Assembly (NCBI GenBank): GCA_043782755.1
Contig: JAYWAC010000240.1
Location: 591-64,590, forward strand
Source of the DNA: Pseudomonadota bacterium
Lineage (GTDB): Bacteria > Pseudomonadota > Gammaproteobacteria > Ga0077536
Length of the DNA: 64,000 nt
Direction: 5' to 3'
Part shown: piece by piece, positions 154-63,478 of the stretch
Layout: each line of letters opens with the position of its first letter
Numbering within the stretch: the stretch's first letter is position 1
Notes under the pieces: generated by a model
What the model saw: the letters and a program-made list of their open reading frames with translations, nothing else
What the model was told of the DNA's origin: nothing
The model's database searches: none
Translations under genes and position numbers: made by a program

Positions 154-1701
154 TTATCGGTCGCCGCGTCGCGATGACGCGGGCGTGCGCTTCAATAGCT
201 GTCGCTGGTGGGTCCACTCGAGTGGCAAATTTCGCGACTGCTTGATGAGGTGGCTGGCATTCAACTCGGGCGGGTGTCGCCCCTCCATGAGCGCCTGGGT
301 GATGTCGGGAGCCAGCCATGCCAGTCGCAAGACGGCGGTGAAGGTTGACTCGCTGATCTCGGCTTGCGCGGCGAGTGCCTTCATCGACATATCGACGTCG
401 GTGTTCATGACCCGCTCAAGATAGGCATGCGCCTTCTTGAGTAGCTTGATGAGGGTTGCATCCGGTTGCGGCTCGTCACGACGTCCATCGCCGAGCACGA
501 GCTTCAGTCCCCCTCGCACATGACATAGGCGAACTGGCGTGGTGACGGTGTCTGTGTCCTGCGGGTTGTGTGCGTTGTCGTGACGCTGTTGGAGCACGTC
601 ACGCAACGGCTGTTGCTCTGCGATGGCACGCACGACCTGCAAGTCGAAATGCAGCGTGAGCTGGTCGTGAGTGACGACGACGCGGATGAGTAACGCCAGG
701 ACGAGCGCCCGTCGATGGGCTGCAGGGAGGTCAGACCATTGTGTGGCGAGCGTGTCTAACGTCTCCATTCGTGCTTTGAGTGTGGTGACTGAAGGCTGAT
801 CGGCCATGAGATGCTCGCCCAAGGTCTTTCTATCTCGAAGCTGACGACACAGTTGTCGTGTGACTTCACGTTCGAGTTCGAGTTCGAGCGCGGGCAGGCG
901 GAGGCTCTCCGTGCGTGCGGACTTGCTGGCGATGGTGAGCGGGCGGGAGATGTAGTGGCGATAGCGCTTGTTGTCTTTGACGGCATGGGTCGGTGTGAGT
1001 CTGTCACCATTGGCGTCGAAGGCGAGTCCGGTGAGGAGACCCGCATGCGCCGCCTTCGGTCGCACCGCACTGTCAACACGGCTTTGCATCAAACGAGATT
1101 GCACCGCTTGCCAGAGGTCGTCATCGATAATGGCGGGATGTTGACCGGGGTAGATCTGGTCTTTGTGCGCAATCTGTCCGCGGTAGAGGGGATTGCTCAA
1201 CAACCGATAGAGCGCGCCGCGCTGCATCGGCGTCCCGCCCTGGCCCGGTCTGAGTTTGCTGACAATGCCGCGTGCCTCCAAATCGGACTTCAAGTCAGCG
1301 ACGCTGCCGAGTTCGAGGTAGCGTTGATAGATGAAGCCCACGGTCACGGCCTCGGGCGCGTTCACGACCAAGACGCGGTCGCGGCAGTCATAGCCCGTTG
1401 GTGGCAGGCTACCCATCCACAGTCCCTTGCGCTTCGAGGCCGCAATCTTGTCGCGAATTTGCTCGGCAGTGACTTCGCGCTCGAACTGCGCGAAGGACAA
1501 CAGCACGTTCAAGATCAAGCGTCCCATCGAGGTGGTGGTATTGAATTGCTGGGTGATGGAGACGAAGGAGACTTGATGCCCATCGAAGACTTCGACCAGC
1601 TTGGCGAAGTCAGCCAGAGAGCGGGTCAAGCGATCGACTTTGTAAAGGTGCTCATCCGCCCTTTTTGGTTCGAATTGACGATGCGCAATTCGAACGAGCA
1701 C
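154..1701 (-). pseudogene. large serine recombinase remnant, catalytic N-terminus missing
   Basis: 515-aa ORF. YKVDRLTRSLADF, TSMGRLILNVLLSFAQFEREV and RDKIAASKRKGLWMG match the end of the resolvase catalytic domain plus the large-serine-recombinase extension. The N-terminal part carrying the nucleophilic Ser motif is absent, and no minus-strand ORF upstream supplies it. Confidence 0.6.
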
Positions 1702-38633: not shown

Positions 38634-38948
38634 ATGGATCAACTCTACGCACGCATCTTTGCCGATGCCGAGTTCCAGGCCTTGCAGCAGCGACGCCAAC
38701 GCTTTACCTGGCTATTGTCGGCACTGGTGTTTGCCGCCTTCCTGATCTTTATCTTGTTGGTGGCTTTCGCGCCGGCGCAGCTGGCGGTGCCGATAGCCTC
38801 GGGCAGTGTCATCGCACGCGGCATTCCTCTCGGTTCGGCCACGATTGTTTTTGGTTTCGTGCTGACCGGCCTCTATGTGCGACGCGCCAACGGTGAGTTC
38901 GATCGCGACATGGCGCGCATCATCACGCGCTGTGCCGCCGAGATCTGA
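38634..38948 (+). CDS. DUF485-family inner membrane protein (YjcH-like)
   Basis: 104 aa with F..L...R.RF followed by two TM helices. Sits immediately upstream of the ActP-like symporter, as in yjcH-actP operons. Confidence 0.75.
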
Positions 38949-38952
38949 AGCG

Positions 38953-40617
38953 ATGGCGCGCAACAACGGCCGCGCGCTGTTCGCGTTTGTCATGACGCTC
39001 GGCGCACCGCTAGTCCAGGCGGTCGGTAGTGATGGCCCGCTGCAACGCGAACCTGTGAACCTGCCGGCCATCGCCATGTTCTTGGTGTTCGTGGCAGTGA
39101 CCTTGGGCATCACTTGGTGGGCGGCACGACGCACGCGCACTGCGGCTGATTACTACGCCGCTGGCGCCAGCATCAGTGGCACGCAGAACGGTTTTGCCAT
39201 CGCCGGTGATTTCATGTCGGCGGCGTCTTTCCTCGGCGTCACAGGGCTCATCTACAGTGGCGGTTTCGATGGTTTGATCTGGGGCATAGGCGGCCTCGCC
39301 GGCTGGCCACTGCTGTTGTTTCTGTTCGCCGAGCGCTTGCGCAATCTCGGTCGTTATACCTTCGCCGACGCGGTCAGTTTCCGCCTCGCGTCCGGGCCTA
39401 TGCGCATGTTGTCGGCGTGTTCGACCCTGGTCGTGATCAGCCTCTATCTGATCGGGCAGATGGTCGGTGCCGGCACGTTGATCCAGGTCTTGTTCGGTCT
39501 GCCCTATAGCGGCGCGGTGTTGACGGTTGGCGCGCTGATGATTTTCTACGTGACTTTCGGCGGCATGATCGCGACCACCTGGGTACAGATCACCAAGGCG
39601 GTGTTGTTGCTGTTCGGTTCGACCGTGTTGTCGGTACTGGTGATGGCGCAGTTCGATTTCTCTTTCGAGCGACTGTTCAGCACCGCCGTGCAAGTGCACA
39701 AGAGGGGCATAGGCATCATGTCGCCGGGTAGCCTCGTGACCGATCCGATTTCGGCGCTCTCGCTCGGCACGGCTTTGTTATTCGGCACCGCTGGCCTGCC
39801 GCACATCCTCATGCGCTTCTTCACCGTGCCGGATGCGCGTGCTGCGCGCCACTCGGTGTTTGTCGCCACCGGTCTCATCGGTTACTTCTATATCTTGATC
39901 GTGATCCTGGGCTTTGGCGCCATTGCGCTGCTGGCGCAGAACCCGGCGTTTCTGACCGAAGCCGGTGGCCTGCGCGGCGGTGACAACATGGCCGCCATTC
40001 ATCTATCCCAGGTGGTGGCGGGCGATTTGTTTCTAGGTTTCATTTCGGCGGTGGCCTTCGCCACCATTCTCGCGGTGGTGTCGGGTCTGACCTTGTCGGG
40101 CGCTTCAGCCATCGCCCATGATCTCTATGCCAACGTCATCCGTCGCGGGCGCGCGACGGAAGCCGAAGTGATCCGCATCTCGCGCGTGTCGGCGATCGTG
40201 CTCGGCGTGTTGGCGGTGGTGCTTGGCATCGCCTTTGAAGGACAGAATGTCGCCTACATGGTGTTGCTGTCCTTCGCGGTCGCGGCGAGCGTCAATTTCC
40301 CCATCCTGTTCCTGTCACTCTACTGGCGGCGTTTGACCACGCGCGGTGCGCTGGTCGGTGGCAGCTTCGGATTGCTGACAGCCTGTGTTTGCGTAGTATT
40401 CGGACCCACCGTGTGGGTCGATCTCCTGCATCACGCCGCGCCCGTGTTTCCCTATAAATACCCGGCGCTGTTCGCGCTAGTCGCCTGTGTCAGTGTCACG
40501 GTGCTGGTCTCGCTGACTGACCGCAGTGCGCGCGCGGCGCTGGAGATCAAGGCCTTTGAACACCAATATGTGCGCGCAGTGACAGGCTTGGGCGCGAGCG
40601 GCGCCAGTGCGCACTGA
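38953..40617 (+). CDS. actP: cation/acetate symporter (SSS family)
   Basis: Start at MARNNG (ATG 38953), 5 nt after the DUF485 stop. Polytopic with [18 protein letters not shown] and [12 protein letters not shown] motifs. Confidence 0.8.
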
Positions 40618-56368: not shown

Positions 56369-56746
56369 TTATTTATCCTCGATGGGCGGTTTGCGCGGCG
56401 CATAAACCTCTTCGACTTTGCGCAAGCCCGCCACGCCGGTCGGCCAACCGCCGTAGTGGGCAAGATGCAGCATCATCTCTTCGACTTTCTCGCGTGGAAT
56501 GCCGATGTTCTTCGCGCCATGCAGATGGGTCTTCAATTCCTGCTCACGCCCTAGTACGGTCAAGGCCGCGATGGTGATCATGGAACGTTCTGCGAGTTCG
56601 AGACCCGGCCGACTCCAGATATCGCCGAACAGATTGCCGACCGTGACCTGCATGAAATCGCTGCTGATGGCGGCCTCATCGAGGGTGCGGCCGAACAGGC
56701 GTTGCATGACATTCTTGCCTTTCTCGATACGGGTGCTGTCGGTCAT
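56369..56746 (-). CDS. carboxymuconolactone decarboxylase (AhpD-like) family protein
   Basis: 125 aa with CMD-family layout (FGDIWSRPGLELAERSMITIAAL...HLHGA). Confidence 0.75.
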   Translation of the reverse strand: MTDSTRIEKGKNVMQRLFGRTLDEAAISSDFMQVTVGNLFGDIWSRPGLELAERSMITIAALTVLGREQELKTHLHGAKNIGIPREKVEEMMLHLAHYGGWPTGVAGLRKVEEVYAPRKPPIEDK

Positions 56747-58636: not shown

Positions 58637-59620
58637 TCAGAGCTTCGGCAGGATGTCGTGCACCAGGCGGCGCATGTCGACCAGGGTCTTGGCGGTCGGC
58701 GTGCCGCTGAAGGGCGGCCACAACAGTGGCATGGTCAGGCCGGCGTCCTTGTAACGTTTCAAGTTGTCGGTGATCTGTTCGATCGTGCCAACCAGCGTCG
58801 GGGTGAGCTTGCCGCGCGGCGTCTGGTCGGTTTTGTCGCGCGTGATATCAAAGGGCAGCATGCTTGAGATCTCGAGCTTGTCGATAGCATGACCGCCGCC
58901 CGACTTTTGCAATTCCACCTCGATGGCGGCGCGCCAGGTGGCGATCGCGTCGGGCGTGTCCATGATGCCTATCCAGCCATCGAGGCCGTATTGGGCGACG
59001 CGGCTCGCGGCAATCTCCGGTCGACCGAGACCACCGAAGAACATCGGCGGACGCGGCTTCTGCACGGGCTTGGCACCAAAGCCGCATTTCGGGAAGTCGG
59101 CAAACTCACCGTGATATTCGAACAACTCGTTGGTCCAGATGCCCTGCATGATCTCGATGGTCTCGATGACATGCTTGTTGCGTCGTGTGTAACGATCACT
59201 GGCGCTGGCGGCGGCGAATTCTTCCGGCATCCAGCCCGAGCCGACGCCGACATTGATGCGGCCACCGGAGAGTTGATCCCAGGTCGCGATCTCCGCCGCC
59301 AGCACACCGGGCGCGCGATAGGGCGTGACGATGACGCTGACACCGATGCGGATGCGCTTGGTGATCGCGGCGAGATAGGGGATCAGCGCCGGCCCGTTCA
59401 GAAATTCGCCGCGCGCGCTGACCGGCAGCGCGTTGGGGAATTCCTTCATGAAGCCAAAGGGCTTGGCGAGGCCGCCGCTATCCGAAGCCTCGGGTATCAC
59501 GATGCGATCCAAGGTCCACACGGAATCGAAGTCCAGAGCCTCGGCCTCGTGGGTCAAGGCTTCGATTTCAGCGACCGAAATCTTGTCGCGCAGGTTCGGC
59601 AGATAAAGCGCCAGTTTCAT
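58637..59620 (-). CDS. LLM-class flavin/deazaflavin-dependent oxidoreductase
   Basis: Start at MKLALYLPNL (ATG 59620). Luciferase-like layout (FDSVWTLDR, RINVGVGSGW). Confidence 0.8.
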   Translation of the reverse strand: MKLALYLPNLRDKISVAEIEALTHEAEALDFDSVWTLDRIVIPEASDSGGLAKPFGFMKEFPNALPVSARGEFLNGPALIPYLAAITKRIRIGVSVIVTPYRAPGVLAAEIATWDQLSGGRINVGVGSGWMPEEFAAASASDRYTRRNKHVIETIEIMQGIWTNELFEYHGEFADFPKCGFGAKPVQKPRPPMFFGGLGRPEIAASRVAQYGLDGWIGIMDTPDAIATWRAAIEVELQKSGGGHAIDKLEISSMLPFDITRDKTDQTPRGKLTPTLVGTIEQITDNLKRYKDAGLTMPLLWPPFSGTPTAKTLVDMRRLVHDILPKL

Positions 59621-59806
59621 CGGTAATCCCCTTTTGCCCTTGAGCATAGCCGCGCATGGCGCCAGCCTGCCCGTCTTGTTGTTACATCGTCAGGCCTCGA
59701 ATTCTATGCGCGGACGGCGCGCCATACACCAGTGTGCTCGGCGCTTGCACGAGTCCGCAGCGTGTTCCACCATCGCTTCCTGAAAATATTTTCTTGAGGT
59801 CAAACC

Positions 59807-60148
59807 ATGAGCAAGCAGATCAACTGGTACTACTTCCGCAAGGGCTGAACCAGCTGTGACAGCGCGTCCAAGTTTCTGGACGCAAGCGGGATAACTCCCA
59901 AAGAAAGTGTGCCCGCTTCGCGCCGCTTAAGCGCGGAGGATGCAAGGGCCCTGGCGGCCGCAGCCACCACGGTCATCGTTGCCAAGGGCAAGCAGCTTGA
60001 GACCTATAAGCCGGCGGGCAAACCGACCGCCGAGCTTATCGCGGCCATGCTCGGCCCGACCGGCAATCTGCGCGCGCCGACCCTGGTCAGCGGCAAGACC
60101 GTGCTGGTCGGATTCAACGAGGCGAGCTACGCCGAGGTGCTGGGCTGA
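59807..60148 (+). CDS. ArsC/Spx-family thioredoxin-fold protein with in-frame UGA at the CxxC position (candidate selenoprotein; alternatively a pseudogene)
   Basis: ATG 59807 lies 7 nt after GAGG. The frame is continuous with track ORF 59909..60148 except for TGA at 59846-59848. It reads MSKQINWYYFRKG-U-TSCDSASKFL...GNLRAPTLVSGKTVLVGFNEASY. The U-T-S-C sequence sits where the family has C-x-x-C. Confidence 0.55.
59864..59883 (+). promoter_or_regulatory. SECIS-like hairpin 15 nt downstream of the in-frame UGA
   Basis: Perfect 7-bp stem gcgtcca/tggacgc with the 6-nt loop aguuuc. Confidence 0.4.
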
Positions 60149-60292
60149 AATGCAGGACGCCGTCGACGATGCGCGGCGGCGTCCATGTCGACAGGCGCAC
60201 TGGTTTAAAGATCCGGATGTTTGCGATGCCAGCTTGTGGCCTGTTGAAAGGCATGGGTCGCGCTGATCAATACACCTTTGGTCGTCAGTTGA

Positions 60293-61633
60293 TCACACCG
60301 CGCGCGCCGCGCCGAAGGGCATGCGTACGCCAAACGCCGTGAGGAAGGCATAGGCCGACATCGTCGTCAGCGCCACCGTCGCGGCAAACCACATCGACAC
60401 CATATAAGTCTGACCGCACAGCCAGCCTACCAGCCACAGCGCCGGCCACAGTGTTGGTGCGATCGCCATGAACAGCACCATCAAGCGCCACGGCTCGTCA
60501 TTGCGGCGACTGCACAGGCCCGTCAGCAACAGCAGCAAACTCAAACCCCCATAAGCGGCCCAGTAGAAGCACAAGCCCAGCGCATCGACGGGTTGTTGGT
60601 CGTGACGCGCTGTGATCGCGATGGCGCCCAGCGCCGAGAGCGCGACCAGCAGCACACCAATGCGCGTGATCGCCTGGTCATCAAGCACTCGTGCAATCTC
60701 ACGCGGCGCGCGCCAGGCCAGCAGCGCGGCGGGCAAGGCCCAGATCACGGCGATGAGCGGCAGACGCTCCGTCGCGCCGCGCCAGGCACCGAGTAGATCG
60801 AAGCCCAAAGGCGCGAGCAGTCCTTCATGCACGATAACCGCCGTCGCGCCATAGCCAAACAGCGACAGCAGTGCAGCGGTCGGCACCACCATGCGACGTC
60901 GCGCTGGCAGATCGACGGCGCCGATGTGATGCATCCATAAGGTCATGATCAAAACGCAGAGCACGGCGAGCGAACTCACCGCGCCTTGATTGATCTCATG
61001 CATGTCATAGGGCAGGACCATGCCGAACACGGCCCATTCCAAGCGCAGCACCGGCGCGGTCAGCAGCGCCGCCATCATCAAGGCCATGAAACCCATATGC
61101 GAACGGAAATCGCGACGGCGAATGGCGAGCACCGCCGCCGTGACCGCGCTGAGACAGGCGAGCGCCAAAGCCCACAGCGCGAGGCCGAAGGCAGGGCTGG
61201 CATAGATGTCGGCTAAGGGTGTGCGGACGAGGTAAGTGAGCGCGCCGATCATCGAAGCGCCGACCCCGACAATCACAATGCCACCGACGGCACGGTGAGC
61301 GACGCGATAACGTCGGCGCAGGGCCGGCACGAACTGCAAGACACCGAGCGTGATGGCGAAGCCACCGAGCAGGGTGTGCGAGGTCATCGCCGCCAGTGCC
61401 TTGCGATAGGTGGGATACATGAGGTGAGCGGAGCCCGGGCCGAGGGAATAGGCCTCGCTGGTCATAGCGGCCTGCACGCGTGCCCACCAGCCGGCGTCGT
61501 CAGCGCGCAGTGCAAAGTTGAATTGCATCGCCATCACGCCGAACAACACACAAATGACGGCGGCCAAGATCCAGGCCCAGGCGCGCGGCCGTTGCTGGCC
61601 GGTAGCGCTCGTCGCTGACATCGATACGGCCAT
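60293..61633 (-). CDS. polytopic membrane protein, N-terminal half DUF2306-like
   Basis: Start set at MAVSMSAT (ATG 61633) so that it does not overlap the upstream gene. About 12 hydrophobic segments. The DUF2306 assignment is from memory of the family layout. Confidence 0.55.
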   Translation of the reverse strand: MAVSMSATSATGQQRPRAWAWILAAVICVLFGVMAMQFNFALRADDAGWWARVQAAMTSEAYSLGPGSAHLMYPTYRKALAAMTSHTLLGGFAITLGVLQFVPALRRRYRVAHRAVGGIVIVGVGASMIGALTYLVRTPLADIYASPAFGLALWALALACLSAVTAAVLAIRRRDFRSHMGFMALMMAALLTAPVLRLEWAVFGMVLPYDMHEINQGAVSSLAVLCVLIMTLWMHHIGAVDLPARRRMVVPTAALLSLFGYGATAVIVHEGLLAPLGFDLLGAWRGATERLPLIAVIWALPAALLAWRAPREIARVLDDQAITRIGVLLVALSALGAIAITARHDQQPVDALGLCFYWAAYGGLSLLLLLTGLCSRRNDEPWRLMVLFMAIAPTLWPALWLVGWLCGQTYMVSMWFAATVALTTMSAYAFLTAFGVRMPFGAARAV

Positions 61634-61779: not shown

Positions 61780-62631
61780 TTAGCGGGCAGTCTTCGCGGC
61801 GCGACGACGGCGCGCCAACAACAAGCCCGCTGCCGGCGCCAACATCCACAAGCTGGACGGCAAGGGCACCGGCCGAATGTCATCGAGCGCGAAATAGAGC
61901 GGTGTATTGGCGCCGAAAGGGCCGACGTCGGACGAGGTCAGACTGAACTCAAGGGCCGATACCGCGCCGAGACTTGCGAGTTGCACCTGCGTCCATTGCT
62001 GGACGATGTAGTCCTGCGCGCTATTGGTGGCGCGAAAATCCGCTAGATAGAAATCCACCGTGCCGGTCACGGCATTGGTGTTGTCGCGCCCGACGATGGT
62101 GAGGACGAGGAAGTCCGGCTCAGTACCGTCCGCGCCACCGAACTGCTTGGCGAAGGAATCGCCGTTGCGCATCGACAAGGCGGTGTAGGTGGTGTTGGTG
62201 AACATTGCGCTGGCCAACACCGTCGGCGCATCGAAGTCGATGCGCGGCGCGGACAAACCGCCGGCATAGGCGAGACCATAGGTCGCGCTGCCGCCCGCAC
62301 CGCTACCGGCATAGGCGCTGAATTCATTGCTGAAGCCGGCGGTGGTGGCGTCGGTGGTGCGCGAATAGGCAAAACCATTCCAGAAGGTCGCACCGCCGCA
62401 GCATTCATTGTTGAGGTTGTTGAAGTGCGCGCCGTGGGAGTTGAACTGACTCGCGATGCTGCTATCGGTGGGTGGCACCAGGCCCGACCAATAGCTGCCG
62501 CCACCCGGGCCGGCGTAGGTTTGTTCGTTAGGCATGCTGACATCCTCGAAGTCGATGGTGGCGGCATGGCTGAGGTTAGCTGTCAGTGCGATCAATGCCA
62601 GCACGGTGGCGCGTGGGAAAAGTGTGTTCAT
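61780..62631 (-). CDS. DUF4465-domain secreted protein with PEP-CTERM sorting signal
   Basis: Signal peptide (ALIALTANLSHA). FWNGFAYSRTTD, NTTYTALSMRNGDSFAKQF and DFYLADFR match the DUF4465 layout. C-terminus is VPLPSSLWMLAPAAGLLLARRRR. Confidence 0.7.
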   Translation of the reverse strand: MNTLFPRATVLALIALTANLSHAATIDFEDVSMPNEQTYAGPGGGSYWSGLVPPTDSSIASQFNSHGAHFNNLNNECCGGATFWNGFAYSRTTDATTAGFSNEFSAYAGSGAGGSATYGLAYAGGLSAPRIDFDAPTVLASAMFTNTTYTALSMRNGDSFAKQFGGADGTEPDFLVLTIVGRDNTNAVTGTVDFYLADFRATNSAQDYIVQQWTQVQLASLGAVSALEFSLTSSDVGPFGANTPLYFALDDIRPVPLPSSLWMLAPAAGLLLARRRRAAKTAR

Positions 62632-62674
62632 GCAATAGTCCTCGATGGGGAAGTGATTTGTTGTGGAGCGATCT

Positions 62675-63478
62675 TCAGACCGATGACCGTTTGCGTAAGG
62701 CGAGTGCGGCCAAGGGTGCCAGCATCAGCAGCGCGGGTGTCGGCAACGGTATCGGCGCTGGCGCCGAGGCATGCAAATAGCGCACACCGAGCGCTTCTAG
62801 ATCGAAGCCGCCGCTGCCGGTGGTATGAAAGGGGTCGTAGATGAAATGCGGACCGCCGAGATTGCTCGGCCAGTTGTCTTTCTCGCTGCCATTGCCGACC
62901 ACATCCACCAGCCGCACTTGGGTGATGTGGTTGACATCGATGCCCGCGACGTTCTTGAACAGATCGAGATCGAAGGGCGTGCCGAAACCCTGGCGATACT
63001 TGCCAGCGAGGCCATCTACGTTGGTGGGATCGGTAGTGCCGAAGGCGCCGACCGGCGAAGGCGTAAATGAAAACGCCGGAAAGCGGAAGAAGCTCGTGCC
63101 GTTGGATGACACTTCGACAAAGGCGAATTCGAGAAACGTATCGCTGAAGCTGTTTTCAAACACCGCGAAATCCCAGCCCGGACCGTTGAAGATCGAGCCG
63201 CTGAAAGTCAGCGTGATGCGTCCAGCATCGCCCAGCGCGACGATGTCGAAGCTGTTACCCAGCGCCGGCCCGAGCGCCTTGTCGGGCGTACGAAAAGCGG
63301 CGTCCACATTGCTGCCCGGTAGATAGTGCTCATAGCCGCTGGCCCAGGCGGTGATCAAGCTGCTGTTTTTGGCGATGGCCGTCGAACCGCTCTGGCCGGC
63401 GGCGGGCGCGAAGGGCCCGGCCTGCGCGCTGGCACAGATCGCGCACAACGCGAAGGCAATGAAAGTCTGGTGGGTCAT
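62675..63478 (-). CDS. secreted PEP-CTERM protein of unknown function
   Basis: Signal peptide (FALCAICASAQA), GWDFAVFEN motif, and C-terminal IPLPTPALLMLAPLAALALRKR. Confidence 0.65.
   Translation of the reverse strand: MTHQTFIAFALCAICASAQAGPFAPAAGQSGSTAIAKNSSLITAWASGYEHYLPGSNVDAAFRTPDKALGPALGNSFDIVALGDAGRITLTFSGSIFNGPGWDFAVFENSFSDTFLEFAFVEVSSNGTSFFRFPAFSFTPSPVGAFGTTDPTNVDGLAGKYRQGFGTPFDLDLFKNVAGIDVNHITQVRLVDVVGNGSEKDNWPSNLGGPHFIYDPFHTTGSGGFDLEALGVRYLHASAPAPIPLPTPALLMLAPLAALALRKRSSV

Follow-up and report, generated by a model that had tools for sequence, protein, structure and literature searches.

The segment from position 59807 to 60148 on the forward strand of the analysed stretch of DNA (64,000 nt, in the following referred to as the window) can, from sequence comparison, be regarded with high confidence as a real gene in which the internal UGA very probably stands for selenocysteine (Sec), i.e., as the gene of a predicted selenoprotein. 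The family concerned, one of small redox proteins, has figured among the catalogued selenoprotein families since 2008, such that the call of a selenoprotein in the first-pass annotation is correct, yet not new; the window gene constitutes a new, mis-annotated member of this curated family.

The complete predicted coding sequence (59807..60148, +) comprises 113 codons, including that of Sec14, followed by the terminal TGA at 60146-60148. A Shine-Dalgarno-like GAGG (59796-59799, +) is situated 7 nt before the ATG at 59807, as is evident from direct reading of the sequence. The first 13 codons (MSKQINWYYFRKG; 59807..59845, +), which correspond to strand beta1, lie 5' of the predicted Sec codon and are missed by gene callers. 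They are followed by the in-frame TGA at residue 14 (59846..59848, +), with which the U-T-S-C redox motif (Sec14...Cys17; 59846..59857, +), apparent from the translation and from 80 relatives, begins. Further downstream, residues 82-91 (60050..60079, +) form the family signature LGPTGNLRAP, which consists of invariant alignment columns and contains R89. Translation of 59807-60148 gives MSKQINWYYFRKG, a stop and then TSCDSASKFLDASGITPKESV..., this TGA at 59846-59848 being the sole internal stop, and the joined product accordingly reads MSKQINWYYFRKG-(TGA)-TSCDSASKFLDASGITPKESVPASR...EVLG-(TGA). At this locus the mechanical ORF list contains only a 79-aa ORF starting with GTG (59909..60148, +), a pipeline call that represents a restart artefact after the TGA, and the public annotation of the metagenome scaffold behind the window likewise gives just a 79-aa unnamed fragment, to which no family is assigned. 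The layout originally described, i.e., an ATG preceded by GAGG, a frame open except for one TGA, an ORF track with nothing but the 79-aa ORF and a full gene missed by standard callers, was found again in all of these points on rereading and translating the sequence.

Concerning family membership, searches in which Sec was entered as Cys yielded a match to the NCBIfam model NF041106 ('ArsC_rel_Se_1, ArsC family (seleno)protein') at 105 bits, compared to a curated cutoff of 85 (E 3e-30). This match spans residues 5-108 of the product and positions 1-107 of the 107 positions of the model, and its score above the cutoff backs the proposal of a UxxC selenoprotein of the ArsC/Spx family. The Pfam ArsC model (PF03960) is matched at 20.3 bits (E 7e-4), which is below its gathering threshold of 24, and the Spx/MgsR model TIGR01617 at 21 bits, such that its cutoff of 75 is missed. 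TIGR00014, the model of true arsenate reductases, is absent among the NCBIfam matches at E <= 1. Despite the sub-threshold score for PF03960, kinship with the ArsC/Spx/YffB superfamily is supported by the profile match to Spx (E 2e-6) and by the Foldseek matches described below. With about 113 aa, a UxxC motif with Sec in first position, the LGPTGNLRAP segment and a downstream SECIS hairpin, the window gene shows no difference of substance from the NF041106 family; it is a member that has been deposited as a 79-aa fragment.

Selenoproteins named 'arsenate reductase' were described with a UxxS motif in the Sargasso Sea survey (PMC1088965), and the GOS survey (Zhang & Gladyshev 2008; PMC2398784) added 'Arsenate reductase 2, cd03032, UxxC', with 42 Sec sequences from 21 samples and 238 Cys homologs. 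Both papers bear out the earlier statement that ArsC-like selenoproteins occur in metagenomic selenoproteome surveys. As judged from its predicted product, the window gene belongs to NF041106, which equals the GOS group 'Arsenate reductase 2 (cd03032, UxxC)'. In a 2026 review the family is named 'Arsenate reductase-like protein', with citation of the GOS paper (PMC13188914). According to this review, such families are known from bioinformatics only, without proof by 75Se or mass spectrometry, and their functions are largely uncharacterised (PMC13188914).

A search of 5.8 billion proteins yielded 2,338 relatives. Most of the nearest database relatives are deposited as fragments of 79-100 aa, whereas the full-length entries show Cys or Trp in the Sec column. 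The called starts vary among homologs (79, 85, 90, 91, 99 and 100 aa), as would be expected if gene finding resumes at whichever in-frame start codon comes first after the TGA. When GTDB species were scanned with one genome each, 595 relatives were obtained, and for the best 80 of these the DNA was compared. All 80 loci contain full-length colinear homologs with TGA at the Sec column, preceded by M-x-K-x-(I/V)-(D/N)-W-Y-Y-x-R-K-G and followed by T-S-C. Additional frame-disrupting mutations, which had been named as a possible sign of decay, were looked for among these 80 loci, and the close relatives proved to be free of them. There are 78 unique sequences among the close relatives, which are thus not assembly duplicates of one sequence. 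The hosts of the best 80 are metagenome-assembled genomes (MAGs) labelled Gammaproteobacteria, Myxococcota/Deltaproteobacteria, Acidobacteriota, Binatia, Opitutales, Spirochaetaceae and others, and the nearest relatives of the window gene are found in MAGs labelled Gammaproteobacteria. True Cys forms account for around 7 of the 120 best database proteins; look-up of the DNA confirmed genuine TGC codons for P0028, P0082, P0021 and P0118 (loci L085, L086, L093 and L095). The column thus holds TGA in all of the best 80 loci and TGC in the Cys forms, which answers the proposed check of whether homologs carry TGA or Cys at this position. From these comparisons the subfamily appears to be almost entirely of the Sec form, the best 80 of the 595 genome relatives all being predicted to contain Sec.

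TGA is the commonest stop in the window, where it ends 24 of 40 long non-overlapping ORFs, and it also ends the gene itself; the organism uses the standard code. Decoding of the internal TGA therefore calls for a recoding signal close by. A hairpin of the SECIS type is situated at 59864..59883 (+), with a 5' arm GCGUCCA (59864-59870), a loop AGUUUC (59871-59876) and a 3' arm UGGACGC (59877-59883). This is the perfect 7-bp stem (GCGTCCA/AGTTTC/TGGACGC in the DNA) that the first-pass annotation had pointed out, and it begins, as given there, 15 nt past the TGA, overlapping the codons of the A-S-K-F-L-D-A peptide. The isolated hairpin exhibits a minimum free energy (MFE) of -10.9 kcal/mol, and the 66-nt region reaches z = -2.5 against dinucleotide shuffles, 1 of 200 of which folds as well.

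The hairpin was compared among 77 distinct sequences, which were aligned without gaps. The named helix is paired in 95.9% of cells, whereas a displacement of the 3' arm by 1-3 columns leaves only 26-37% paired; in 500 column shuffles the observed pairing or covariation is never reached, and RNAalifold recovers the identical helix independently. Covariation is modest, as two of the seven pairs are compensatory (pair 24:39 with GC, GU, CG, AU, UG and UA; pair 22:41 with GC and UA) and three are invariable, and the conservation of the stem is partly confounded with that of the A-S-K-F-L-D-A peptide. Codon usage inside the hairpin differs from that elsewhere in the same genes: Ser +7 is encoded by TCC in 70 of 70 cases (14% TCC elsewhere), Lys +8 by AAG in 71 of 71 (71% AAG elsewhere), and Leu +10 by CTG or TTG in 70 of 70 (49% elsewhere). 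In the hairpin the synonymous sites are thus frozen. As a control for this freeze, the Cys forms give a mixed picture and not a clean negative: L085 and L086, which are distant, no longer show either the hairpin or the freeze, and two close ones keep a weakened remnant of the hairpin.

For bacterial SECIS elements (bSECIS), the 2026 review (PMC13188914), in its summary of the bSECISearch model, lists a loop of 3-9 nt on a stem of 4-16 bp, a G within the first two positions of the loop, usually followed by G or U, a distance of 16-37 nt between UGA and loop, and an MFE of -7.5 kcal/mol or lower. Scored against these four published properties, as had been proposed, the window element exhibits all of them (a loop of 6 nt, 7 bp, G at loop position 2 followed by U, 22 nt, -10.9 kcal/mol), and it is conserved with covariation. 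By a simple automated parse, all four are likewise present in 74 of 81 family members. The fdhF element of E. coli has a bulged U, which is not present in the window hairpin. No Rfam model matches the hairpin, permissive thresholds giving chance-level matches only.

Two further features were observed around the hairpin. The close Cys forms L093:301-642 (P0021) and L095:298-636 (P0118) possess a weakened stem (-5.5 and -6.8 kcal/mol) and keep the SECIS codon string CGA GCG TCC AAG TTT (C/T)TG. 'Fossil SECIS' have been reported in an earlier paper (PMC1794560) in Cys forms descended from Sec ancestors, and the hairpins of L093 and L095 look like such fossils after a recent conversion from Sec to Cys. 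Directly 5' of the hairpin, the Arg +5 codon (A2 columns 19-21, window 59861-59863) is CGA or AGA in 60 of 63 Arg-bearing sequences, and the A directly before the stem is conserved to more than 90% and has no pairing partner (L001-L080). The window has AGC (Ser) at this codon. The conserved A may be a contact of SelB or a structural feature.

Concerning the machinery for Sec insertion, ARAGORN, Rfam searches and tblastn with the SelA, SelB and SelD proteins of E. coli detected neither selA, selB and selD nor tRNA-Sec in the 64 kb of the window, and no Sec machinery was found up to 6 kb away from the 80 relatives either. As a rule, Sec genes lie apart from the genes of selenoproteins, and their absence from the window therefore says little. 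The main residual alternative is nevertheless connected to this point: the gene might be a relic or orphan in a host that has lost the Sec machinery, in which case the UGA would end translation after 13 residues or be read at a low level by near-cognate Trp or Cys insertion, and the gene would be heading to decay or conversion. The lack of Sec machinery in the window is in line with such a relic, as are the conversions existing within the family, i.e., the Cys forms L093 and L095 with their remnant hairpins and one locus with TGG (L084, see below). Yet the window copy is intact, with all family-invariant residues and without frameshifts or additional stops, its hairpin is perfect at -10.9 kcal/mol, its score for NF041106 lies above the curated cutoff, and the 80 relatives are equally devoid of nearby Sec genes, such that the absence from 64 kb carries little weight. 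A relic is thus considered improbable, and a gene functioning as a selenoprotein gene remains the preferred reading.

ARAGORN reported a 'tRNA-Ile (gat)' of 92 nt at 39116-39207 (-). A sodium:solute symporter gene (38875-40617; PF00474) contains it in antisense orientation, Rfam gives no tRNA match for it, and the call is almost certainly a false positive.

The part of the gene preceding the TGA was compared at the codon level between the window and its closest relatives, L003-L007. Across the 13 upstream codons, each of these differs from the window by 2-5 synonymous changes and by no replacement, and the N-terminal peptide WYYxRKG-U-TSC is conserved at the protein level in the 80 relatives. 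The segment 5' of the TGA hence appears to be under purifying selection as translated sequence, and coding conservation on both sides of the UGA, the general criterion for selenoproteins, is found here. The check for coding conservation that had been proposed for the upstream segment thus turned out in favour of the gene, and the restriction to synonymous change upstream of the TGA rules out, for practical purposes, two further readings. According to the first of these, the locus is an ordinary pseudogene, namely a Cys-form gene hit by a nonsense mutation from TGC or TGT to TGA. A single-base change would suffice for this, and pipelines do treat the locus as a truncated ORF; however, the TGA column is shared by 80 of 80 relatives across phyla, by which the reading is effectively refuted, and besides the selection upstream there is a conserved hairpin of the SECIS type after the TGA. 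A pseudogene is accordingly very improbable.

No better off is the reading that the true product is the 79-aa protein starting with the GTG at 59909, the upstream similarity being that of an untranslated leader. This ORF is the only one seen by the mechanical caller, but the upstream region evolves as coding sequence, the GTG corresponds to the conserved Val of V-P-A-S-R, and homolog starts are inconsistent, ranging from 79 to 100 aa. Moreover, strand beta1 and helix alpha1 of the thioredoxin fold would both be missing from the 79-aa form, as would the redox motif, and the probability of this reading is considered to be just as low as that of a pseudogene.

Use of genetic code 4 or 25, in which TGA stands for Trp or Gly, as several database homologs deposited with W in the Sec column might suggest, has a practically negligible probability, given that TGA is the most frequent genuine stop of the window and also ends this gene and that the 'W' entries P0036 and P0025 (L087:229-570, L088:117-458, L089:76-417) have TGA in their DNA, the W being an artefact of code-4 translation.

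The loci of the P0036/P0025 type are located on short contigs with around 44% GC, and public metagenome gene calls apparently translated them with code 4. By this reading of TGA as Trp, clusters of 'GWTSC' proteins (with as many as 38 members) have arisen that have no natural counterpart. The supposition that all 'W' homologs are such code-4 mistranslations proved to be mostly right, with one exception, L084:145-501 (ENA ERZ23499032 scaffold_27014; P0017), which is represented by a single contig and possesses a genuine TGG and the motif G-W-T-S-C. At this locus the GCAUCC...GGAUGC hairpin is kept, but Asp stands in place of the loop Lys, and the C-terminus diverges. The TGG, which is one base away from TGA, could reflect a natural loss of Sec to Trp, decay of the copy, or an error in sequencing.

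Concerning the fold of the predicted selenoprotein, the family profile matches Spx structures (6ghb, 1z3e, 3gfk) with E about 2e-6. In the profile alignment the Sec column coincides with Cys10 of the Spx motif C10-T-S-C13, to which U14-T-S-C17 corresponds exactly; Spx thus possesses C-T-S-C at the aligned position, as had been stated for the protein of B. subtilis. The AlphaFold model refers to the Cys homolog P0021, which is 60% identical, and not to the window protein itself (pLDDT 94, pTM 0.86). In this model the first Cys follows a strand (5-10) and immediately precedes a helix (15-26), which would place the active site at the beta1/alpha1 junction, the classical position in the thioredoxin fold. 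Foldseek ranks Spx, an ArsC-related protein and YffB on top, followed by glutaredoxins; the TM-scores amount to only 0.5-0.56, which indicates a divergent branch of the superfamily.

Despite the general similarity to the known members of the superfamily, there are differences from each of them. Spx/MgsR (TIGR01617; PDB 1z3e, 3gfk, 6ghb), a group of regulators that sense redox state and bind RNA polymerase, is the best match among solved structures by profile and by fold and has the G-x-L-R-x-P segment in common with the family, the LGPTGNLRAP motif being aligned with G-L-L-R-R-P of Spx. However, the TM-score is about 0.5 at an rmsd of 6-8 A, and Spx proteins consist of 131-132 aa compared to 113 aa here, the C-terminal tail of Spx being absent from the window protein. 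Selenoproteins are not known among Spx proteins. With the glutaredoxin-coupled arsenate reductase ArsC (R773 and E. coli b3503; TIGR00014) the window protein has the superfamily in common; in an hhalign alignment, which covers just 25 columns (residues 8-32) with E 0.14, the catalytic Cys12 of the E. coli protein (b3503) lies opposite the Sec column. The ArsC of R773 possesses an oxyanion-binding triad of Arg60, Arg94 and Arg107. The single invariant Arg of the family is R89 within NLRAP, and no alignment was obtained for the other two positions. The selenoproteins designated 'Arsenate reductase 1' in the GOS and Sargasso data differ in their UxxS motif from the UxxC found here. The protein belongs neither to the canonical arsenate reductases nor to the Spx regulators; from its sequence and the model of its homolog, it is most likely a small redox protein that acts on its own, with a U-x-x-C couple of selenol and thiol.

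The following course of events would be consistent with these observations. When a ribosome reaches the UGA at 59846, the complex of SelB, GTP and Sec-tRNA(Sec) would be tethered by the hairpin (59864-59883), in which the loop AGUUUC, at a distance of 22 nt from the UGA, would present the G-U recognised by bacterial SelB. Sec would be inserted at codon 14, and translation would continue to the ordinary TGA stop at 60146. In the product, Sec14-x-x-Cys17 would be situated at the N-terminus of helix alpha1, where it would most likely cycle between the selenol/thiol and the selenenylsulfide state. For the source organism, we infer both the insertion of Sec and the redox function from the sequence comparisons described above.

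The family occurs in at least five phyla, in uncultured lineages that are for the most part aerobic, and its SECIS is nearly invariant. It is conceivable, albeit rather unlikely, that it acts as a redox sensor similar to Spx, or as a reductase dedicated to an uncharacterised substrate, and depends on selenium such that Cys would be unable to replace Sec; if this were true, selenium would have a widespread use in aerobic bacteria that has yet to be characterised. The predicted gene implies use of Sec by its source organism, which is uncultured and probably a gammaproteobacterial aerobic heterotroph. It adds one more intact member to a family of uncharacterised function and leaves the knowledge of Sec decoding and of the ArsC/Spx superfamily unchanged. 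Its value lies in the correction of the annotation and in pointing to a functionally uncharacterised, strikingly Sec-dominated family. It constitutes a clear case of a selenoprotein gene that is truncated (79-100 aa) or mistranslated (W, code 4) by public pipelines, and hundreds of such entries exist for the family in protein databases, by which family statistics and MAG annotations are distorted.

Concerning the genomic neighbourhood, the gene is flanked upstream by genes for a luciferase-like monooxygenase, TauD and an enoyl-CoA hydratase and downstream by DUF2306 and DUF4465 genes, all of them on the opposite strand. There is no ars operon context (arsR, arsB/ACR3) at the window locus, and no neighbour is conserved across the 80 loci, the best true neighbour being an SDR gene at 11 of 80. 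The top clusters in the neighbour comparison turned out to be shadow ORFs over the gene itself and not real neighbours. A CMD/AhpD-like gene at 56369-56746 (-) was considered as a second selenoprotein gene and rejected, as it ends with TAA and has no CxxC or CxxU motif.

A scan of 59500-60400 for promoter and terminator consensus sequences gave no result, and the frame past the stop of the gene is not conserved in relatives. A strong, though imperfect, inverted repeat, GGACGCCGUCGAC...GUCGACAGGCGC, is situated at 60153-60202 (+), starting 5 nt past the stop of the gene. The repeat region (60149-60210) folds at -28 kcal/mol and contains no U-tract, which is why the terminator scan did not call the repeat. 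It may be a terminator or stabiliser common to the gene and the convergent DUF2306 gene.

At the left edge of the window, a large serine recombinase with Resolvase and Recombinase domains is encoded at 154-1701 (-). It hints at a mobile or integrated element nearby; it lies around 58 kb from the selenoprotein gene and is unrelated to it. On the other side of the gene, at 61780-63478 (-), the DUF4465 protein (283 aa) and an unassigned protein of 267 aa adjoin a TonB-dependent receptor (beyond 63504), which is complete in L091:407-2530. Both the DUF4465 protein and the 267-aa protein possess hydrophobic, Arg-rich tails that resemble sorting signals of the PEP-CTERM type.
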